Source: an uncultured Chromatiales bacterium (GTDB lineage Bacteria > Bacteroidota > Ignavibacteria > SZUA-365 > CAYQST01). From it: 64,000 nucleotides of DNA. Made by a program: the position numbers and the translations under genes. Shown one piece after another: positions 18,717 to 51,609 of this stretch; positions within the stretch are counted from its first letter, which is position 1; each line of letters starts with the position of its first letter. The stretch spans positions 32,160 to 96,159 of the forward strand of contig CAYUYM010000001.1 in the NCBI GenBank assembly GCA_964449305.1, in the 5' to 3' direction. Under the pieces are notes generated by a model. The model saw nothing but the letters and a program-made list of their open reading frames with translations, searched no databases and had not been told where the DNA came from.

Positions 18717-18749
18717 GTAAAAAGAAGCCCGCCGATGTCGGCGGGCTTC
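18708..18749 (-). terminator. Rho-independent terminator of T9SS paralog A
   Basis: On the minus strand the sequence reads GCCCGCCGACATCGGCGGGC followed by TTCTTTTTACCAAAAAAAA. It lies 38 nt downstream of the stop at 18787. Confidence 0.75.
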
Positions 18750-24085: not shown

Positions 24086-24120
24086 ATCGGCGCTCCCCAT
24101 GGAGCGCCGATTGCGTTTCC
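24086..24120 (+). terminator. Rho-independent terminator after paralog C
   Basis: The hairpin is ATCGGCGCTCC-ccat-GGAGCGCCGAT, an 11-bp perfect stem, followed by TGCGTTTCC. Confidence 0.6.
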
Positions 24121-33318: not shown

Positions 33319-33353
33319 GCGGGGGCGACACTGTGTCGCCCCCGCTGTTGTCC
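33319..33353. terminator. Bidirectional intrinsic terminator between the convergent PAS gene and LTD-PLD gene
   Basis: The hairpin is GCGGGGGCGACA-ctg-TGTCGCCCCCGC, a 12-bp perfect stem, with TGTTGTCC on the 3' side. Confidence 0.6.
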
Positions 33354-33384: not shown

Positions 33385-36300
33385 TCAGCGTGCCACCACG
33401 AGGAAGCGTGTCGTGCTCCGGCCGTCGGCATCAAGGCGGTACATGTAGCTTCCGCTTCCCAGACGTGAGGCATCGAAGGTCGCTGTCCACGCCCCTGCCG
33501 GCATGATGCCGGAGACGGGCACGGCCACCTCGCGACCAAGCATGTCGAACACCGTGAGGCGCACGGCGCCGTGGGATGTGGTGCTGAAGCCGATGGTTGC
33601 GGTCGATGACGATGCGGTGAGCGGATTGGGCCAGCTCTGCGAAAGCGCGGGAGTGGCAACCGCGGGCGCGTCCCCGGCGTGCAGGACGATGGATCCCTTG
33701 CCGCCAGCGTCCTTGTACCGCTGATACCATTCCGCGAGATACTGCAGGGCCACGGTGCGCGTATGGATGCCGATGGTGTTCTCGTTGTTCGAGGACTCCG
33801 CGGCATTGCTCCAGTTGTGCGAGCCGGTGATGACCATCGGGTCGCTTCCCGGGTTGGTGTTCTCGGCGTCGATGATGAGGTACTTGTGATGAAGGATGCC
33901 GGAGAGGTTGCCCTTCAGAAGCACATCAATGCCGTTTGTCTTGAGGTAGTTGAACTCCGACCCCTGGTCGCTCGAGTTGTCCATGACGAGGCGCACGATG
34001 ACGCCGGCCTTGGCCTTGTTCACCATGGCCGTGGCCAGGTCGTCACGCGTGAAGGTCATGATGCCGCTGTAGAGCGAGGTGGTCGCAGCGTTCGCCGACC
34101 GGACGAGGTAGTTCGTCGTCTGATCGCTCGGGCTGAAGAAGGACTCGAAGCGCGTGCCGGTGATCATCACCTGGTGCGGGGTGTTGTTCATCTTGCGTGC
34201 GCCAAAGCGTGAGCTGGTGCTGTTGGGTGTGTCGGTGCTGCTTCCCCACATCTCCTCGAACTCGCGCTGGTAGACCGTGGTGATCGCCTGATCCTGGATG
34301 AAGACCGCGTTCTGTGCATCGGAGTTCGTCCCCTCGTCCGTTGTGTTCCAGGATCCGGTGATGAGGAAATCGTCGAGATCGGAGCTGCGGTCCCGGGCAT
34401 CAATGATGAAGAACTTGTTGTGCATGAGACCCGCGCCGGCGTTGATCGGATCGAAGGTGTCGAGGATGACGGGGACGGCCGTACGCAGCGTGCGGATCGG
34501 CGCCGTGTTCGCATTGTCGGCCTCCACGATGGCGCGCACCTTCACACCGCGGTTCGCCGCGGAGATGAGCGAGGCCACCACCTCCTCACCCACGTTGCCG
34601 GAGAGGCTGTAGAGGCAGACGTCGATGCTGAAGTGCGCCGCGTCGATGCGGTCGAGCAGCTTCAGCTTCAGGTTCACGTTCCCCTCGGCGGGCACGGGAA
34701 TCGGCAGAGTGTTGTCAACGCTCTTGTTGAAGTACACCTTCGTGTCACCGGTGGAAGTGGCCGATGCGGTGACGAAGTACATCCGCTGCGACCACGAGGT
34801 GTCGCCATTGGCGACGCTGAACGCGATGGCCTGGTGGATCGTCCCGGGCTGCAGGCCCGTGATGGTCACGCTCTGCTGCGTGCCCGAGGTGGTCCCGGAC
34901 GCCACACCCAGCTCGAATGCGGAGGTGAGACCGTACCTCACATGGGATTCAGCGCTGGCGCCGGTCTGCCACGTGTAGGTGACCTCCGTGGGCTGGATGT
35001 CGGATTCGTAGGGGAGCGTGATGATGCGCGGCCCCTTCGAGGAGATGTCGCTGCCCATGCGCGGCATGAGCTGGTATCCGCCGACGAAGGGCGAGGTGCG
35101 CTGGTACTGGCTCACGATGCCGACCACGTCGAAGCTCCCGCCCGGTGCGGCCTGGCCGACGAAATCCACACTCTTGCTGATGCGGATGTCCATCTCCCTG
35201 CTGCCGTCGCTGATCTTGTAGTTCGTGCCGGACCCGGTCACCGCCCAGGTGGTGGTGTTCACCGTCACGTTCCGCAGGAGGATGAGGCTCGATTCCCACT
35301 TCTCCATGCCGTTGACACCGTCGGTGAGCAGGTCGTTGATGGTGACCTCGATCGGCGTCACCTGGTTGCCGGTGCTGACGCGCTTGTCGATCGTCACCTC
35401 GGTCAGCTCGGTGAGGCCGTTGAACTGCGTCACCTTGCCCGTGAGAGTCACCTCGTCGCCGATGGCCACACCGTCGGAGAAGGTGAAGTCATAGACCGCG
35501 ACGCCGGCGGTCGCATCCTGGATGTAGGCGGGCGAGCCGAACTGGTTGGATGCGGTGACGATGCCGTTGATGGTGACGAACTGATTGAGGCGGACGGGTA
35601 CACCACTTGCATCGTTCATGCGCGCATCGGCGATGGCCATCGGGCCACCCTGGACCACGAGCACGGGGCTGAGCTGGATCGGACGCAGGGTGCCGCCTCC
35701 TGAGGTGGAGACCAGGAAGGTGAAGGACGCGGTCTGGAACGGGGCCGTCACAGTGCGAAGCGTGATGAGGCCGGAGTCTGCGGAAAAGGTGGGAGCATCG
35801 ATGAACACCGAATCGTCCACCACGCGTGTTGTGGCGGTGAGGGTCGGGCCGAGAACCACATCGGCCGCCGTGCGGGACCAGGTGAACTCACCTGGCACGA
35901 CGATCCGGATCGTGGTGAGGGGCATGCCCGGAGTGGGCGTGAAGACGACGGGGATGTCGCCGGCCTCGCCACCCTTCATGCGGGCGAGGGGGATGATGGC
36001 GGTCCCGGATCCCTCAGCAGTCTTGGGCTCGGGCGGGCTGGTGGAGTTCTGGGGATTGCGGCCGTTGGTCTGGACGATGAAATCCGAACCATTGTTGTCG
36101 GAGTTGTAGGGGTTCCCGGCGAACTCCTCCGCACCGCCGACCCAGAGCGAGGCGGCGGTGGAGGTGGCACTGGCCCTGCGTTCCACGCAGTTGTCGTTTG
36201 CGGTGTCACCATGGTTCGGAGCGTTGGATCCTTTGGGATCGTTGCCGGTGCCGAAGCCGACCCGGTCGATCTCCACGTCGGAGGCGGTGGTCAGCCGGAT

Positions 36301-36675
36301 GGTGCCATTGTCGGCCATCCCGGTTGTCGCCCATTTGACATCGGGCGTGACAACGCCGTTCCATGTGGTCCCCGCCAGAAGGTAGTAGGAATGCGACGGC
36401 AGGACGGTGCCCGACGGGATGGTGGCCATGACGCTGTAGGTGCTGCCACTTGCCGAGCGGTACCAGAGTTTCCATTCCGAGATGCTGACGTCGGCGTTTG
36501 TGGGATTGTACAGTTCCACGTATTCGCCGCTGGCGTTGCCGGCCAGGCCACGCGTTGCAAACTCGCTGATCAGCACGGAGCCGGATTGTGCGCGGGCCAC
36601 ACCGAGCGTCAGAACGGCGAGAACGACGGGGGCGAGCATCCTGCCGGACAGTGGAAATGAAGCGAAGGTGAACAT
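33385..36675 (-). CDS. T9SS-secreted PLD-family (double HKD) nuclease/phosphodiesterase with N-terminal lamin-tail domain (LTD)
   Basis: It has a signal peptide. The N-terminus SVLISEFATRG...GEYVELYNPTNADVSISEWKL is LTD-like. The two HKD motifs are LMHNKFFIIDARDRSSDLDDFLITGSWNTTDEG and ILHHKYLIIDAEN...VITGSHNWSNAAE. The C-terminus ...RLTVFDMLGREVA...RFLVVAR is a T9SS CTD. Confidence 0.7.
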   Translation of the reverse strand: MFTFASFPLSGRMLAPVVLAVLTLGVARAQSGSVLISEFATRGLAGNASGEYVELYNPTNADVSISEWKLWYRSASGSTYSVMATIPSGTVLPSHSYYLLAGTTWNGVVTPDVKWATTGMADNGTIRLTTASDVEIDRVGFGTGNDPKGSNAPNHGDTANDNCVERRASATSTAASLWVGGAEEFAGNPYNSDNNGSDFIVQTNGRNPQNSTSPPEPKTAEGSGTAIIPLARMKGGEAGDIPVVFTPTPGMPLTTIRIVVPGEFTWSRTAADVVLGPTLTATTRVVDDSVFIDAPTFSADSGLITLRTVTAPFQTASFTFLVSTSGGGTLRPIQLSPVLVVQGGPMAIADARMNDASGVPVRLNQFVTINGIVTASNQFGSPAYIQDATAGVAVYDFTFSDGVAIGDEVTLTGKVTQFNGLTELTEVTIDKRVSTGNQVTPIEVTINDLLTDGVNGMEKWESSLILLRNVTVNTTTWAVTGSGTNYKISDGSREMDIRISKSVDFVGQAAPGGSFDVVGIVSQYQRTSPFVGGYQLMPRMGSDISSKGPRIITLPYESDIQPTEVTYTWQTGASAESHVRYGLTSAFELGVASGTTSGTQQSVTITGLQPGTIHQAIAFSVANGDTSWSQRMYFVTASATSTGDTKVYFNKSVDNTLPIPVPAEGNVNLKLKLLDRIDAAHFSIDVCLYSLSGNVGEEVVASLISAANRGVKVRAIVEADNANTAPIRTLRTAVPVILDTFDPINAGAGLMHNKFFIIDARDRSSDLDDFLITGSWNTTDEGTNSDAQNAVFIQDQAITTVYQREFEEMWGSSTDTPNSTSSRFGARKMNNTPHQVMITGTRFESFFSPSDQTTNYLVRSANAATTSLYSGIMTFTRDDLATAMVNKAKAGVIVRLVMDNSSDQGSEFNYLKTNGIDVLLKGNLSGILHHKYLIIDAENTNPGSDPMVITGSHNWSNAAESSNNENTIGIHTRTVALQYLAEWYQRYKDAGGKGSIVLHAGDAPAVATPALSQSWPNPLTASSSTATIGFSTTSHGAVRLTVFDMLGREVAVPVSGIMPAGAWTATFDASRLGSGSYMYRLDADGRSTTRFLVVAR

Positions 36676-36890
36676 AGGGATCCTGATGGTGAAGATGAAA
36701 CCACAGATGCAATCTGAAAAAATAGCTCACTGCAACGTGAAATCATACCATGGAAACAACGTGTCGGAGCGCGGTTGCCGGCCACTGTCAACTGTCCGAC
36801 ACATCCCGTATATTTTCCCGTCACTGCTCCGACGTGGCACGGTATTCGTCGGGCTGCCATGCACCCTTTCACTCCCTCGGACTCGCCGCC

Positions 36891-39542
36891 ATGCTTCGCG
36901 TCTCGCCTGCGTTTCTCCTGGACCGATACGTGCAGTCATCCATCCAGGATCTGGTCCGGCGCATCCGCTCCGGTGAGCGGCGCATCACGCTGCCCGTCCC
37001 CCCGGGAGGCGTGCGCGTCCGCATCGTTGCCGGGGTGGTGGGGGAGCTGCACAGTCGCACGATCGTCCTCTCGGGCAACCTTGCACGGCAGGCCGTCTGG
37101 CAGGATCGCTGCGATGATGGACCGCACGTCTTTGCCCATGCGATGGCGATGCAGTGGCCCGGTGGCTCCATCCCCGTCATCAGCACCCTGCCCTGGTCAT
37201 GCTCACCGGTGCTGGTGCTTCACGCCGACAAGCACCTGGCGCCGATCTGCGGCGGCGAAGGCATGGCGCACGGCCGCGAACGTTTCGTCCGTCATATGCT
37301 CAAGCATCATTACCGACTCGTCATCGTCGACACGGGCGAGCCGCTGCCGTCGGCGTGGGACGAGGTGATCACCGATGTGCAGCGCGAGGCGGACATCACC
37401 GTTGTCGAATGCCAGGTCACGAGCCATGCGGTGATGGCGCCCGTGTTCGCGGTGAAGGAGCGTGGCGGGCATGCAACGCTGCCCGTGCTGCCGCTTGTCA
37501 TCAGGGCCGGGGAATATCTCCCCACGCGTCACCTTGTGCAGATCGTCCGCATGAGCGATGCCGATGAGGCGGCTCTCACGACGCTCCACCATGAGATCGA
37601 ATCGCTGCTCCACATCCTCGACACGCCGGCGTCGGGACTGCGATCCCTTTCCGACTGGGCTGCGGCGCAACCGGACAGCGTGCCGGCCCGCCGCGTGTCA
37701 CTCCACCAGGCCGTCCCCTCCGGGCGGTCGCCGCTGACACGATGGTCTGACATCTACACCCTCATTGAGACCGTGCAGCGCTACCGCGACACGTATCTCG
37801 CCCGGCTCGACGGCGGCGCGGGTGCGGAGATGGTGGAGCCCATCGACCAGCTCTTCAGCCATCTTCATGGTGGGAGCGTGGCCCGGGCCAGCCTGCTGCC
37901 GCAGTTCGGTCCGTCGCTGCTCAAACTGCAGCGTGTTCTCGCCATTCTCGACGCCGAGGCGGCGACGATGCGTGATGATCTCCGGACCTTGGTGTTGCTG
38001 GCAGAACAGGTGGATGACGGGCATCTCCATCAGCCACACGCCGAGCACATGCAGGGGATCCATCTGCTGGAGCTGTTGATGTCGATGAAGGCACCCGTGG
38101 CCATCAATCCCGCGGTTCTGACCGGATGGTCCTGGCTTGCCCCGCCGACGCTTGCCTCTCACATCATGGCGGAAGCGGTGTCCCATGTGGAACGACGCGG
38201 CTGGGAGATCCACTTCGTCCAGATCAGGCACGCCTCCTACCACGAAATCGAGGGACGTGGGCGGGACTGGAATTCGCGCACGTATGTGCTTCTCACCCAG
38301 ACGTTGATGTCGCTGGCGGTGATCCGCTGCGCCATCGGCGATCCGGATCTCCTTGCCGCCGGATGGGATGATCTGCCGGTCAACACCGTGATCGATCTCC
38401 AGGTGCGCGACGACGTGCTTCTCTTCAGCCGGACACCCTCCGCCGTGCATACGGGGATGGACCTTCCGTGGAAGGTGGTGCAGTATTGGAACGTCATCGC
38501 CTTCTCCCGCTGCCCTGTGATCGGTGCCTGTGAATACCAGGCACTCCTGCGGATGCGCTCCCATGCATACAGCCCCGACGACGATGGGATGCTGTGTTCG
38601 GGCACCCCCCGCATGCAGCGGTGGTTTGCCGGGGCCCACATCGCGATGGACGACGCCGCCATCGACGGGCTGAACGCGGAGATGCTGCAATCGGCCGCCC
38701 GGCGCGAAAGCGCGCTCAAGGCCTGGAAGGTGGGGGAGGAGGGAAGCGGGGCGCGGTATCCGAGCCTCGAACTGATTCCCGCCAGGAACGCGCCGACGGA
38801 ACTCCCCATCCCCGGCATCCAGGAAAGGATGCTGGCGGAAGCCTGCGAATCCTGGGAGCAGCAGTCCCAGACGAACCGTGTGGTGACCTCCTTTCTCGCC
38901 ATCATGGCGATTGCCCTGATCATCGCCGCGGCATTGCTTCTGCCGACAGAGGCGGGATTCATCGCATCCGGGGGGATTGCCGCACTGGCGCTGGGGGTGG
39001 CCCTGGTCCGCCACATCCGGCTGCGACTCGCACGCCCCGAGCTTGCGCCCTCGCCCGTGGGGGAATTCATCCACCGTGCGGTGTCCGCCGTTGCCGAGGC
39101 CATCGATCAACCGGATCCTGACGGGGGGAGGAGTCCGGTGCGGCACACCCGGATGCCCGACGGTGGGTATCGCGTGTATCTCGAGACAGAGAATGAAGAC
39201 CGGGCCCGCGAGTTTGTCGAGACTGTTGCGGAGTTGTTTCACCCCCCCTCACAGGTCAGACGGCAGCTCCATGTCCACTCCCTCACCACGGGGAGGAAGC
39301 GCCTGAAGGAGCTTGTACGAAGCCGTGCCGGGGGGCGGACGATGGTGGAAACGCTGGTGCTGGCCTACCCGACACACATCGCGCAATCGCAGGAGCGCGA
39401 GCGACGTTTCCTGCAGGCGTGGCAGCAGCACATCGGTCATGGTGTTGTCCGCGATACCACCCCGGATTCCGCATCCAGCGGTGGAGTGATCGCCGGCAGT
39501 TCCATCATCGGGCACTGCAGTGTCATCGACGTCCTGGATTGA
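36891..39542 (+). CDS. Large hypothetical protein (about 883 aa) with C-terminal TM hairpin; function unknown
   Basis: GC3 is high, about 80% or more from 36891 onward. The 47-codon extension back to 36750 has much lower GC3. The hydrophobic hairpin is VVTSFLAIMAIALIIAAALLLP...IASGGIAALALGVALV. No signal peptide and no known motif were recognised. The antisense ORF 37698..39242 is R/G-rich shadow. Confidence 0.55.
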   Translation: MLRVSPAFLLDRYVQSSIQDLVRRIRSGERRITLPVPPGGVRVRIVAGVVGELHSRTIVLSGNLARQAVWQDRCDDGPHVFAHAMAMQWPGGSIPVISTLPWSCSPVLVLHADKHLAPICGGEGMAHGRERFVRHMLKHHYRLVIVDTGEPLPSAWDEVITDVQREADITVVECQVTSHAVMAPVFAVKERGGHATLPVLPLVIRAGEYLPTRHLVQIVRMSDADEAALTTLHHEIESLLHILDTPASGLRSLSDWAAAQPDSVPARRVSLHQAVPSGRSPLTRWSDIYTLIETVQRYRDTYLARLDGGAGAEMVEPIDQLFSHLHGGSVARASLLPQFGPSLLKLQRVLAILDAEAATMRDDLRTLVLLAEQVDDGHLHQPHAEHMQGIHLLELLMSMKAPVAINPAVLTGWSWLAPPTLASHIMAEAVSHVERRGWEIHFVQIRHASYHEIEGRGRDWNSRTYVLLTQTLMSLAVIRCAIGDPDLLAAGWDDLPVNTVIDLQVRDDVLLFSRTPSAVHTGMDLPWKVVQYWNVIAFSRCPVIGACEYQALLRMRSHAYSPDDDGMLCSGTPRMQRWFAGAHIAMDDAAIDGLNAEMLQSAARRESALKAWKVGEEGSGARYPSLELIPARNAPTELPIPGIQERMLAEACESWEQQSQTNRVVTSFLAIMAIALIIAAALLLPTEAGFIASGGIAALALGVALVRHIRLRLARPELAPSPVGEFIHRAVSAVAEAIDQPDPDGGRSPVRHTRMPDGGYRVYLETENEDRAREFVETVAELFHPPSQVRRQLHVHSLTTGRKRLKELVRSRAGGRTMVETLVLAYPTHIAQSQERERRFLQAWQQHIGHGVVRDTTPDSASSGGVIAGSSIIGHCSVIDVLD

Positions 39543-39612
39543 TGATCGGGCGTGAGGGGAGATTTCCGATCTGGCGATTGACAAATATTTCACGTACATT
39601 TTGTTCTGACGC

Positions 39613-39637
39613 GGGCTGTTGATGTGATCAACAGCCC
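39613..39637 (+). other. Perfect 11-bp stem hairpin (GGGCTGTTGAT-gtg-ATCAACAGCCC) in the intergenic leader of the BNR-repeat gene
   Basis: The sequence is seen directly. It is preceded by TTGACA...TACATTTTG, a possible -33/-7 element. It could be a terminator for the upstream gene, or a 5' UTR structure. Confidence 0.4.
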
Positions 39638-39666
39638 GGCATATTCCACAATTTTCAAGGATTGTT

Positions 39667-42324: not shown

Positions 42325-42360
42325 GAAGCCCCGTTCCAGCGAACGGGGCTTCGTCGTTCA
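42325..42360 (+). terminator. Rho-independent terminator after BNR-repeat gene
   Basis: The hairpin is GAAGCCCCGTTC-cagc-GAACGGGGCTTC, a 12-bp perfect stem, followed by GTCGTTCAC. Confidence 0.6.
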
Positions 42361-42542
42361 CAGCGCCCCGCAGGATGCGAAACGGATTCTGCGCCAGCCC
42401 GGATTGCGATGTAACCATCTCACACATCCGATGTCTATATTTCGTGTTGACGCACAATGACAACACACATGATTCACGTCTCCCTTCGCTCATGTCCGTG
42501 GCAACAAGCATCCATCATATTCATCCACCCCAGGAGAACCCC

Positions 42543-43421
42543 ATGAAAAACCTCATCCTTCCGGTTGTGCTCGTCCTGGCACTTGCGCTCAGTGCATGCG
42601 ACAAGTCCTCTGTGGCACCCACCGGACCGACGAACAACAGCGTTGCAGCAGTGCAACTGCTTGGAAGCCTCGATCTGACAACGGATCAGGAGTTGCAGCT
42701 TGACCAGGCCTTCTACCTTGGTGAGGATCTCGAGAACACCCTCACACCTCGCCAGACCAAGGCGATCAATGATCTCGTCATCATGTTCACCCCGCCCGAC
42801 AGCATGGGTGGCCGCATCCGCCAGGCCGTCATGGACATGGACGCCATGATGTACTTCCGCCTGATCCTCAAAGCGAATCCGGACATGTCCGACGAGATGA
42901 AGAAGGCGATCTACGATCTCATCGTCGCCTCGGCGAAGAACCGCCTCGCCATCATCCTCGAGAACAAGGAAAACCCGGACGTCATCCGTGATCTGTTGAA
43001 GACGGAGCATGAGGCCCTCATCGCCGCCATCAACGAGCTCATCGGACCGGAAGCCGTGAAGAACGCCGAGGATCTCAAGGCGAAGATCGAGCAGGAACGC
43101 AAGGACCGCATGGAGAAGCTGCTTGAGCAGCGCATCCAGCGCCAGGTGGATCAGCTCACAAAGTTCCTCGGTCTCGATGAGGAGCAGGCAGCCGCCATCA
43201 AGGCCATCCTCATCGCCCAGGAGAAGCAGATCCAGGCGCTGCGTGAGCAGTACAAGGGCGATCCCGAAGGCTTCCGCGCCGCGTTGAAGGAACTCCAGGC
43301 GGCAACGGACAAGGCCATCTCCAACCTCCTCACCGACGAGCAGTTGAAAAAGTGGGAGGCTCTGAAGAACCGGCGTCATGGCGGTGGTGGTGGTCCCATC
43401 ATCATCGGGCCCCGTGGCTGA
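42543..43421 (+). CDS. Periplasmic LTXXQ-motif (Spy/CpxP/ZraP-like) lipoprotein
   Basis: The protein begins MKNLILPVVLVLALALSAC, a lipobox. The repeated LTPRQ / LDEEQ / LTDEQ motifs are typical of the CpxP/Spy family. The body is coiled-coil-rich, and a G5 tail is present. Confidence 0.55.
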   Translation: MKNLILPVVLVLALALSACDKSSVAPTGPTNNSVAAVQLLGSLDLTTDQELQLDQAFYLGEDLENTLTPRQTKAINDLVIMFTPPDSMGGRIRQAVMDMDAMMYFRLILKANPDMSDEMKKAIYDLIVASAKNRLAIILENKENPDVIRDLLKTEHEALIAAINELIGPEAVKNAEDLKAKIEQERKDRMEKLLEQRIQRQVDQLTKFLGLDEEQAAAIKAILIAQEKQIQALREQYKGDPEGFRAALKELQAATDKAISNLLTDEQLKKWEALKNRRHGGGGGPIIIGPRG

Positions 43422-43432
43422 CGCTCTGATCG

Positions 43433-43468
43433 AAAAAAACCCCGTTGCTTCAACGGGGTTTTTTTTCG
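43433..43468 (+). terminator. Strong rho-independent (bidirectional-type) terminator
   Basis: The sequence is AAAAAAA-CCCCGTTG-cttc-AACGGGG-TTTTTTTTT, 12 nt after the stop. Confidence 0.85.
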
Positions 43469-43583
43469 TCGTGCCATTGCTTTGTGATCGCCCGCACATT
43501 TCGTACCTTGACACGTCACAATGTGGCTTCCGTTCTCGCCAACAGTTTGCGTGTCCACCACACCCATCAACAGCATCGCACCC

Positions 43584-44978
43584 ATGGAAAAGTTCGATCT
43601 TTTTCAGCACCCGATTTTCATCGTCGATGATGAGCGGCAGAATCTCGCCCTGCTTCGCATGTGGATCGAGAAGATCTGGCGGTTCCCGGTCAGGGAGTTC
43701 ATCTCCCCGGGCGAGTGCATCAAGAACCTGCCCACCGAACCGAGCCTTGTCATCCTCGACATCATGATGCCGGAGATGGATGGCATCACCCTGCTCAAGC
43801 TCATCAAGAGCGACTATCCGCACATCCCCGTGGTGCTGCTGTCCGCACAGGGGAACGTGCAGATGGCGGTCGATTCCATCCACATGGGTGCCTTCGACTA
43901 CCTCACCAAACCGGTGGACAGGGACAGGCTCGAGGTCGTGCTCCGCAACGCGATCAAGGAGTTCCAGCTCGCCTGTGAGCTGCGGGACATGAAGAAGCGT
44001 CTGGCACAGAACACGGCCTTCACCCAGATCATCTCCATCGATGCCAGGATGAAGAAGGTGTTCGACCTCATCAAGAAATCGGCCAATTCCATGATCTCGG
44101 TTCTGATCCAGGGGGAGAGTGGCACGGGGAAGGAGCTTGTGGCGCAGGCGCTGCATTCCATGAGCATCCGTGCATCGAAACCCATGATCGTGGTCAACTG
44201 CGCCGCCATCCCATCGGAGCTTCTGGAGTCGGAACTGTTCGGCCATGAAAAGGGATCCTTCACCGGGGCCGACAGCATGAAGGTCGGCAAGTTCGAGGCG
44301 GCCAGTGGCGGGACGCTCTTCCTCGACGAGATCGGTGAGATGGAGTTCCAGTTGCAGGCGAAGCTTCTGCGGGCCATCCAGCAGAAGGAGATCACCCGCG
44401 TCGGCAGCGTGCATCCCATCCAGGTGGACGTGCGGATCATCTCCGCCACCAACAGGGATCTCATGCAGCTTGTCCGGGAGGGGCGCTTCCGCGAGGATCT
44501 GTATTACCGCCTCGCCACGTTTCCGATTCTGATCCCGCCTCTGCGCGAGCGTCCGGATGACATTGTTCTCCTGGCCGAGCATTTCCTGGAGCGCTCCATC
44601 GACCGGCAGCAGAAGGATGTCCGGGGTCTGTCCAAGGAGGCCATGATAGCCCTGTCACGGTATCAGTGGCCGGGCAATGTGCGTGAACTCCAGAGCGTCA
44701 TCGAGCGCGCCATCATCCTGGCCGACGAGCCCGTGATCACGCTGGAGCAACTGCCCCTGGAAATCGCTGAAACAGATTCCTCCTCGGGTGAGCAATATTC
44801 GGCCGGCGTCTTCAACATCCTTTCCCCCAACGATCTCGTGCCCTTCGAATCGTTCAAGAAGAGCATCATCAAGAAGGCCTACCAGGTGTGCGAGGGCAAC
44901 ATCAGCGAGGTGGCGCAGCGCCTGAACATCAGCCGGACCACGGTCTATCGCATGCTTGAGGGCGACACCAACCTCTGA
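43584..44978 (+). CDS. Sigma-54-dependent response regulator (NtrC family: receiver + AAA+ + Fis-type HTH)
   Basis: The receiver is IFIVDDE...ILDIMMPEMDG...K. The AAA+ domain carries Walker A GESGTGKE, the GAFTGA-like loop GHEKGSFTGA and ESELFGHE. The C-terminal HTH is ISEVAQRLNISRTTVYR. Confidence 0.85.
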   Translation: MEKFDLFQHPIFIVDDERQNLALLRMWIEKIWRFPVREFISPGECIKNLPTEPSLVILDIMMPEMDGITLLKLIKSDYPHIPVVLLSAQGNVQMAVDSIHMGAFDYLTKPVDRDRLEVVLRNAIKEFQLACELRDMKKRLAQNTAFTQIISIDARMKKVFDLIKKSANSMISVLIQGESGTGKELVAQALHSMSIRASKPMIVVNCAAIPSELLESELFGHEKGSFTGADSMKVGKFEAASGGTLFLDEIGEMEFQLQAKLLRAIQQKEITRVGSVHPIQVDVRIISATNRDLMQLVREGRFREDLYYRLATFPILIPPLRERPDDIVLLAEHFLERSIDRQQKDVRGLSKEAMIALSRYQWPGNVRELQSVIERAIILADEPVITLEQLPLEIAETDSSSGEQYSAGVFNILSPNDLVPFESFKKSIIKKAYQVCEGNISEVAQRLNISRTTVYRMLEGDTNL

Positions 44979-51441: not shown

Positions 51442-51528
51442 TGGTGCGGAAGGCGGGACTTGAACCCGCATGCCCTTGCGAGCGCCACCCCCTCAAGATG
51501 GTGTGTCTGCCAATTTCACCACTTCCGC
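51442..51528 (-). tRNA. tRNA-Leu (anticodon GAG), type II with long variable arm, CCA encoded
   Basis: The reverse complement is GCGGAAGTGGTGAAATTGGCAGACACACCATCTTGAGGGGGTGGCGCTCGCAAGGGCATGCGGGTTCAAGTCCCGCCTTCCGCACCA. The acceptor stem and the T-arm GCGGG-TTCAAGT-CCCGC fold. The anticodon stem is CCATC/GGTGG, the loop is TTGAGGG, and the variable arm is 15 nt. Confidence 0.9.
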
Positions 51529-51537
51529 ATTTTCCTG

Positions 51538-51609
51538 TGAGGCTGGATGGGCTTGAACCATCGACCCTCTGCTTAAAAGGCAGATGCTCTACCACTGAGC
51601 TACAGCCCC
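51538..51609 (-). tRNA. tRNA-Lys (anticodon UUU)
   Basis: The reverse complement is GGGGCTGTAGCTCAGTGGTAGAGCATCTGCCTTTTAAGCAGAGGGTCGATGGTTCAAGCCCATCCAGCCTCA. The anticodon stem is TCTGC/GCAGA and the loop is CTTTTAA. The T-arm is GATGG-TTCAAGC-CCATC. CCA is not encoded. Confidence 0.9.

Follow-up and report, generated by a model that had tools for sequence, protein, structure and literature searches.

A predicted membrane-tethered homolog of superfamily 2 helicases with degenerate catalytic motifs, encoded upstream of a BNR/sortilin gene

We analysed a 64,000-nucleotide stretch of DNA (the window) from an uncultured Chromatiales bacterium with a GTDB lineage in the Ignavibacteria (GenBank assembly GCA_964449305.1, contig CAYUYM010000001.1, positions 32,160 to 96,159 of the forward strand). 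The gene in question, hereafter the target, encodes an 883-aa protein and sits between a secreted nuclease gene and a gene for a beta-propeller protein, both of which carry the sorting domain of type IX secretion system (T9SS) cargo. A reading of the letters without database searches (the sequence-only reading) had described its product as an uncharacterised membrane-associated protein without recognisable motifs. We find that it is very probably a membrane-tethered, dead homolog of superfamily 2 (SF2) helicases. The gene and the parts of its product, as delimited by hydropathy, alignment and an AlphaFold2 (AF2) model, are as follows.

36891-39542, + strand: target gene, 883-aa predicted membrane-tethered, motif-degenerate SF2 helicase homolog; stop codon at 39540-39542
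36891-37556, + strand: RecA1-like domain, aa 1-222; motifs I and II decayed, Ia kept, III lost
37557-37985, + strand: helical insert between the RecA-like domains, aa 223-365; from AF2 secondary structure and an alignment gap against loci L003/L013
37986-38810, + strand: RecA2-like domain and family-specific extension, aa 366-640; motif VI lost
38880-39014, + strand: transmembrane (TM) helical hairpin, aa 664-683 and 688-708 with a very short loop; from hydropathy and AF2
39048-39539, + strand: C-terminal alpha/beta domain, aa 720-883; from AF2, with RxDGxxR, FxxALxEL and the invariant P827

The longest open reading frame (ORF) listed around the target in the window runs from 36750 to 39542 on the + strand (930 aa). 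The ATG at 36891 is the better-supported start, because the 47-codon upstream extension lacks the asymmetry in GC by codon position that marks the gene body (0.57/0.62/0.64 versus 0.70/0.47/0.79) and because alignments with homologs begin at residue ~3-14 of the 883-aa form. In NCBI, the public model (P0001, 930 aa) begins instead at ATG 36750; its 47 extra codons are not matched in homologs, and the start it assigns is probably incorrect. Codon-position GC and the homolog alignments thus bear out the ORF of about 880 aa from 36891 that the sequence-only reading had proposed. It had also judged the ORF to be clearly coding, with a GC content at third codon positions (GC3) above 80%; the judgement stands and the figure is slightly too high, GC3 being 0.79 overall and 0.76-0.85 across all 300-nt windows of the gene. 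No hydrophobic stretch is present at the N-terminus, in agreement with the earlier call of no signal peptide. A 514-aa shadow ORF (37698-39242, - strand) runs antisense within the gene.

Searched alone, the target had no match in Pfam, NCBIfam (E <= 0.01) or the PDB sequences, and k-mer-prefiltered homolog searches, whether with the target or with a 40-sequence alignment, returned only the target itself. A phmmer search against 1.84 billion cluster representatives returned 210 homologs at E < 1e-3, of which 15 fell below 1e-30; the 210 are mostly 750-1070 aa long. One homolog, P0006, aligned with residues 10-850 of the target at E = 1.1e-49 and carries Pfam DEAD and ResIII matches. Among 40 aligned family members, 27 matched Pfam ResIII and 26 weakly matched the NCBIfam XPB model, and the family profile matched archaeal XPB/Rad25 structures at 6e-21. 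The target's link to SF2 is transitive only: it passes through these family members and not through Pfam or PDB matches of its own. A remote-homology search had been advised in the sequence-only reading, and it recovered homologs of SF2 helicase type, an identity invisible from the single sequence.

The family consensus, derived from the top 40 and then from 116 aligned sequences, begins LRxYQ...APPGxGKT...SPNxAIQAQW...LTYQ...LDECHHL...GLTATPP...LRALVL...TG and continues GxGxDWNSRxY...GTRxLLGEGWD...VNQxRGRxxRxDP...DDGxIExGxGHVHP, which reads as a complete SF2 helicase motif set. The earlier statement that the protein has no recognisable motifs therefore holds for the target by its lack of Pfam, NCBIfam and PDB matches, and does not extend to its family, which holds the full set that has decayed in the target. 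The parent family is a rare, uncharacterised SF2 family (ResIII/XPB-like) of ~750-1070 aa with a TM hairpin at ~75% of its length and a ~165-aa C-terminal alpha/beta domain. All named homologs of the target are annotated 'hypothetical protein', and the parent family is otherwise annotated 'DEAD/DEAH box helicase family protein'. A literature search on membrane-anchored, transmembrane or XPB-like bacterial helicases and on pseudohelicases returned nothing on this family. One parent-family member carries a TIR_2 domain, and DZR and Zn_ribbon double zinc-ribbon domains occur in a single member each.

The AF2 model of the target built with the 116-sequence alignment reached a predicted local distance difference test score (pLDDT) of 86.7 and a predicted template modelling score (pTM) of 0.87; it was used instead of a single-sequence model, whose pLDDT was 38. 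The target has the tandem RecA-like domain fold. Its RecA2 region keeps LRxLVL, LTG, GxGxDWNSRxY, GW, W533, DDG and W612, and the family-specific motifs that follow RecA2 (GxGxDWNSRxY, GW, W533, DDGxxExG and W612) are invariant or nearly so in the family and all present in the target. The helical insert varies in length, with ~120 aa missing from clade members of 719-792 aa such as P0002. The C-terminal domain, which is common to family members with intact and with degenerate motifs, had no Pfam match in 40 family members.

The helical TM hairpin at ~75% of the length, followed by the ~165-aa domain with its conserved P827, is characteristic of the target and its family. AF2 helices 641-683 and 686-712 contain the hairpin, and 88 of 95 family members have one at the equivalent position. 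In the numbering of the 930-aa form it spans aa 711-755, which explains why it had earlier been placed near residue 720; the call itself was correct. An arginine-rich stretch after the second TM helix predicts that the N- and C-terminal parts of the target are both cytoplasmic. The hairpin, together with the uniform annotation of the named homologs as hypothetical, supports the earlier description of an uncharacterised membrane-associated protein.

In SF2 helicases, motifs I, II and VI bind and hydrolyse nucleoside triphosphates (NTPs), and motif III links that hydrolysis to movement; nucleic acid is contacted through motifs Ia, IV and V. Motif I of the target (aa 37-43; 36999-37019) is PPGGVRV where the family has PPGxGKT, so that the glycine and threonine are lost and the lysine is replaced by arginine. 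Motif II (aa 144-151; 37320-37343) is VIVDTGEP versus LDECHH in the family, with only the aspartate, D147, retained. Motif III is lost (ECQVTSH versus LTATPP), and at motif VI (aa 503-522; 38397-38456) the target has LLFSRTPSAV versus VNQxRGRxxR. Motif Ia is kept as LSGNLARQAVW (aa 60-70; 37068-37100).

These losses are shared by close relatives. GKT and DExH are kept in 75 of the 90 family members that have the N-terminus. Motifs I and VI are missing in the target and 12 close relatives, as is DExH in all of them except P0016, which keeps DECH; the four motif losses of the target are repeated in P0002-5, P0007-12 and P0014. Motif VI is likewise absent from P0017, P0020 and P0036, which are N-truncated fragments, and in a neighbour-joining tree of the core the 16 sequences without this motif form exactly one clade, hereafter the dead clade. 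Its members keep motif Ia (LSPNLAxQAxW), LRxLVL, LTG, DWNSRxY, GW, DDG, the hairpin and the C-terminal domain, and they share the clade-specific invariant residues S98, P106, R131 and H135. All members found come from metagenomes or metagenome-assembled genomes (MAGs), two of them, annotated 'hypothetical protein', from Ignavibacteriae/Ignavibacteria MAGs. A profile of the dead clade matched XPB at E = 0.009 only, and a metagenome scan with five of its sequences recovered no relative.

The motif changes lead us to infer that ATPase activity was lost in the target's clade. The loss of motifs I, II, III and VI while Ia and others stay suggests a protein that is ATPase-dead and perhaps still binds substrate. 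Since the target has the SF2 fold and SF2 homologs and lacks the catalytic motifs, it is a degenerate SF2 derivative, for which annotation as a helicase would be inappropriate. We considered a novel Cys-His-Asp catalytic site in the dead clade (LPYSCAPV, RHLxKH) and rejected it, as C104 is not conserved in P0008, P0009 and P0012.

Divergence was assessed against L013, a 309-kb JGI metagenome contig that is collinear with the window over 22 kb. The collinear block holds nuoB-F, a 210-aa gene, MntP, PAS, the PLD nuclease, the target, the BNR gene, a lipoprotein gene, a sigma54 response regulator, a DapD-like gene, Trx, MauE, CobAT and dNK. The target is the fastest-diverging gene in this block: it shares 27-38% identity with its L013 ortholog, with a ~125-aa indel, and the 17 flanking orthologs share 54-86%. 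At more distant loci, identity is 56-59% for the PLD nuclease, 43-47% for the BNR protein, 42-46% for the lipoprotein and 69% for the response regulator, and for the target 22-26% over a longer segment and 29-33% over an N-terminal segment.

The ratio of non-synonymous to synonymous substitution rates (dN/dS) was estimated by the Nei-Gojobori method for the ortholog pair P0003/P0155 (loci L004 versus L015); L003 and L013 differ by one nucleotide and hence gave no ratio. For the target ortholog dN/dS was 0.185 over the whole gene (100 synonymous and 68 non-synonymous differences), lowest in the RecA2 region (0.08) and highest in the helical insert (0.38). At the same loci it was 0.218 for the BNR gene, 0.035 for the lipoprotein gene, 0.069 for the histidine kinase and 0.015 for the response regulator. 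The ORF is full-length and intact in all clade members retrieved. With this ratio and the intact ORFs throughout, the clade is under purifying selection and not decaying.

The genes and elements around the target are the following.

33385-36675, - strand: LTD-DUF5689-PLDc_2(x2)-Por_Secre_tail secreted nuclease, the divergent upstream neighbour; from domain matches
36676-36890, no strand: divergent intergenic region common to the target and the PLD nuclease gene, holding a weak promoter-like match
39612-39638, + strand: hairpin with a 12-bp perfect stem (39612-39623 / 39627-39638) and a 3-nt loop, 70 nt past the stop codon
39667-42300, + strand: BNR/Sortilin beta-propeller with a T9SS type-A C-terminal sorting domain (Por_Secre_tail), 877 aa; from domain matches
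42543-43421, + strand: helical lipoprotein gene with lipobox LSAC (MKNLIL...) and LTxxQ-like repeats; longest ORF from 42375, true start probably at 42543
43521-44978, + strand: sigma54-dependent response regulator, last gene of the conserved cluster

Domain matches confirm that the target lies between an LTD-PLD T9SS nuclease and a BNR-repeat T9SS protein, as the sequence-only reading had stated. We read eight independent genomic contexts of the dead clade. In seven of them (the window, L003/L013/L014, L004/L015, L005, L007/L008, L011/L012 and the P0014 contig) the next gene downstream is a BNR/sortilin (+Por_Secre_tail) gene of ~830-880 aa on the same strand. In L011/L012 the downstream gene (827-843 aa) has no domain record and was called BNR by size and context only. 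The downstream BNR orthologs of the clade share 43-70% identity. Upstream, four contexts have the PLD nuclease, one a 569-aa T9SS protein and two a small (170-aa) hydrolase; since these neighbours vary, the adjacency of target and BNR gene has survived rearrangement. The check for conserved synteny with T9SS cargo that had been proposed was thus positive, with BNR downstream in 7/8 and the LTD-PLD nuclease upstream in 4/8 contexts.

A locus in a MAG labelled Chromatiales (L001, 6219-13112), found by a genome scan with the PLD neighbour, encodes a 54%-identical LTD-PLD nuclease. The adjacent gene upstream of it, in the same orientation, is a BNR-like T9SS gene, and there is no target homolog between the two; the pairing of nuclease and target therefore does not reach this distance, and nuclease and BNR gene can be neighbours where the target is missing.

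Beyond the BNR gene, wherever the contig is long enough, lies a gene of ~270-390 aa, with orthologs of the lipoprotein in L004, L005, L007 and L013. Two lipoprotein orthologs had sub-threshold Pfam LTXXQ and Metal_resist matches, and we tentatively regard the lipoprotein as Spy/ZraP-like and its combination with the sigma54 regulator as resembling a ZraPSR/Spy-type envelope-stress module. The regulator follows the lipoprotein in five contexts; in L007 it is absent together with the histidine kinase. A histidine kinase precedes the regulator in L005, L015 and the P0014 contig, and not in the window or L013. A 702-aa ORF (42474-44582, - strand) antisense to the lipoprotein and regulator genes was rejected as a shadow ORF; its GC1 is 0.79, its GC3 0.60, and it has no family matches.

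A perfect 11-bp hairpin had been reported at the 3' end of the target; it is present, and its stem is 12 bp. Six perfect hairpins of at least 11 bp occur in the window versus ~0.15 expected from shuffles, all of them GC-rich (18724-18749, 24086-24111, 33319-33345, 39612-39638, 42325-42352 and 43435-43463). All four that were compared with gene coordinates (33319, 39612, 42325 and 43435) sit just past gene 3' ends, with a separate one after each of three consecutive genes: the target, the BNR gene and the lipoprotein gene. From their excess over shuffles and this position, the hairpins look like the intrinsic terminators of this genome. The one at 39612-39638 has no T-run after its stem and is probably a transcription terminator. 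As a conserved element it was ruled out: the intergenic regions of orthologs have unrelated hairpins or none.

A promoter element had also been placed near 36801. The TATATTTTC element is indeed there, at 36808-36816 within a TATATT(TTC) promoter-like match; its significance as a promoter did not hold up, in that the sigma70-type match (36785-36814, 9/12) was the only one found versus 0.6 +/- 0.7 expected by chance in the region. Repeats in the region were dismissed as short chance matches, and the only Rfam/ARAGORN matches in the window are tRNA-Leu(GAG) and tRNA-Lys(TTT), adjacent at 51442-51609 (- strand).

We propose the following explanation. The target would descend from a rare membrane-anchored ResIII/XPB-like ATPase family, of which one monophyletic clade lost motif III, the arginines of motif VI, the P-loop glycine and threonine, and the catalytic glutamate of DExH. 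What this clade kept is the fold with its two RecA-like domains, together with motif Ia, the hairpin and the C-terminal domain. The hairpin would tether the protein to the cytoplasmic face of the inner membrane. No longer hydrolysing ATP, the target may act as a nucleotide-independent binding or scaffold module through its former substrate-binding surface together with the C-terminal domain. The adjacent cluster may supply its partner or pathway: it comprises the exported BNR propeller, the LTxxQ-like lipoprotein and the sigma54 regulator, with the histidine kinase in some loci, and its conservation suggests a function related to the envelope. For the reading as a whole, a dead SF2 helicase homolog serving as a membrane-tethered scaffold coupled to the BNR/envelope cluster, we estimate a probability of roughly 0.6. 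Its parts differ in strength: the identity as a dead, membrane-tethered helicase homolog is well supported; the functional coupling to the cluster, drawn from synteny only, is tentative and may well prove wrong.

Several points weigh against this explanation. The target-BNR link comes from gene order within one lineage, in L009 purE stands in place of the BNR gene, and a metagenome scan with the BNR alignment yielded only 30-38%-identical homologs: of 80 such loci, 49 of which have at least 3 kb of upstream sequence, none has a family member nearby. A cytoplasmic target and a T9SS-exported BNR protein have no obvious point of contact. The strong terminator-like hairpin between the two genes means that a target-BNR operon is not established. 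The loss of ATPase activity is argued from sequence alone, and the position of the Walker lysine (aa 42; 37014-37016) holds a basic residue, K or R, in 13/13 clade members, as D147 (37329-37331) is invariant in 13/13; a residual phosphate- or anion-binding site in the dead clade is thus conceivable. The dN/dS pair comes from another lineage than the window's own gene.

The alternative that fares best is a functional dead-helicase scaffold unrelated to the BNR/envelope cluster, one that, for example, tethers nucleic acid or a cytoplasmic partner, with gene order merely inherited. It fits the separate terminator-like hairpins after the target, the BNR gene and the lipoprotein gene, the L009 locus without BNR, and the retention of motif Ia, which in SF2 proteins contacts nucleic acid. 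It also fits the active family members in L006 and on a Chondrinema litorale plasmid, neither of which has a beta-propeller neighbour. It does not readily explain why the target-BNR adjacency persists beside three different upstream genes and at only 43-47% identity of the BNR protein. Moreover, of the three active-family contexts read, one does have exported propeller neighbours: on a Myxococcota contig (L010, 10934-16269) two RCC1/WD40 propeller lipoproteins of ~870-910 aa are encoded directly after the active member P0015, in the same orientation. We regard this alternative as unlikely.

Less likely again is a sensor or decoy of conflict or defence origin, derived from a membrane-anchored defence helicase, in which an arms race drives divergence and T9SS proximity is incidental. 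The target's place as the fastest-diverging gene of the 22-kb block would follow from it. In PADLOC, active relatives weakly match PbeA, type IV DinG and type I restriction enzyme helicases, and the single TIR fusion hints that some active family members belong to conflict systems. The target itself has no meaningful match in PADLOC, where all that was found is a 35-residue SP_VI match (E = 0.0026), and its PHROGs matches are noise. It lies in a stable chromosomal block with nuo, dapD-like and dNK genes, with no defence island or mobile element and no partner effector or defence genes in the neighbourhood, and dN/dS in the ortholog pair is well under 1.

A still-active NTPase or translocase with a non-canonical site, built on the basic residue at the Walker-lysine position and D147, is improbable. 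Both features are universal in the 13-member clade, and motifs Ia, IV and part of V are retained. However, the P-loop glycine and Ser/Thr are lost, the catalytic glutamate is missing in the target and seven others of the 13, and neither the TATPP coupling motif nor the motif VI arginines remain; each such loss alone usually abolishes hydrolysis in SF2 proteins. Least probable is a relic, a non-functional, decaying helicase gene that persists by chance because long ORFs are frequent in a GC-rich genome (as the 514-aa shadow ORF attests): the degeneracy of all ATPase motifs, divergence far above that of the neighbours and the variable insert would suit it, and it is largely refuted by dN/dS of 0.185 (0.08 in RecA2), intact full-length ORFs in all clade lineages retrieved, the invariant S98, P106, R131 and H135, the confident AF2 fold and GC3 of 0.79 throughout the gene.

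A broader extension of the membrane-tethered scaffold proposal is a long shot. The dead clade could be a dedicated inner-membrane accessory of the exported BNR/sortilin cargo or of the neighbouring envelope-stress-like circuit, and the TM-hairpin SF2 family could comprise membrane-anchored motors paired with exported beta-propellers, a pairing suggested by the Myxococcota active member with its two RCC1 lipoproteins downstream. If true, a helicase fold would have been recruited to envelope or secretion biology. To our knowledge, helicase-fold pseudoenzymes are rarely documented in bacteria, and we know of no cytoplasmic nucleotide-binding-fold protein tied to T9SS cargo. The analysis turns an orphan hypothetical protein into a member of a defined, monophyletic and selected pseudohelicase clade from an undescribed membrane-anchored SF2 family, and places that clade in a conserved cluster together with a T9SS cargo gene and a sigma54 response regulator. 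Should the link be functional, it becomes testable how the cytoplasmic side serves particular cargoes or envelope responses; should it not be, the clade is a natural experiment on the SF2 fold after loss of ATP hydrolysis.

Compared with known systems, the target stands apart from the secretion system of its neighbours. It has neither a signal peptide nor a Por_Secre_tail match, which both neighbours have, and is therefore not T9SS cargo; nor does it match any NCBIfam or Pfam model of the T9SS machinery (PorU/V/K/L/M/N, SprA and others). The link to secretion that the sequence-only reading had suggested is accordingly not supported, the bulk of the protein being predicted to be cytoplasmic. 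SecA and ComFA are SF2 two-RecA motors that act at the cytoplasmic membrane face in polymer export or uptake. The likeness is one of analogy only: both are active ATPases, peripheral and not hairpin-anchored, and neither showed specific similarity to the target or appeared among the top structural matches.

The closest known proteins are XPB/Rad25 and ResIII-type SF2 enzymes (archaeal XPB 2fwr/6p66; HsdR 3h1t; INO80), from which the target differs in having lost motifs I, II, III and VI. We saw no XPB damage-recognition domain or Bax1-type partner, and the target adds the TM hairpin and an unrelated ~165-aa C-terminal domain. It is not XPB/Rad25 proper: it fell short of the NCBIfam threshold of E <= 0.01, and the best matches of its active relatives (NF045503, 1e-21; TIGR00603, 2e-11) are not full-length over ~900 aa. 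The parent family, exemplified by WP_284687844.1 of Chondrinema litorale, P0006 and P0015, has the same full-length architecture as the target, namely the core, the DWNSRxY/DDGxIE region, the hairpin and the C-terminal domain. Unlike the target, these members keep APPGSGKT, DE[CA]HH, TATPP and QxRGRxxR and are presumably active, and unlike the dead clade, those in L006 and Chondrinema are not beside the BNR/T9SS cluster. The motif-intact WP_284687844.1 (896 aa; plasmid NZ_CP111050.1, L096 6953-9643) matches the family hidden Markov model end to end at 3e-148. It comes from a cultured member of the Bacteroidota, is annotated 'DEAD/DEAH box helicase family protein', and offers a usable experimental entry point.

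In principle the target resembles yeast Utp25, a pseudohelicase that keeps the SF2 fold with degenerate catalytic motifs and has a structural or binding role (PMC9539457). The two have no sequence relationship, and proteins of the Utp25 type are soluble eukaryotic ribonucleoprotein factors, whereas the target is bacterial and predicted to be membrane-tethered. The pseudohelicase principle is thus already known; what is new here is a dead, membrane-tethered clade of an undescribed SF2 family.

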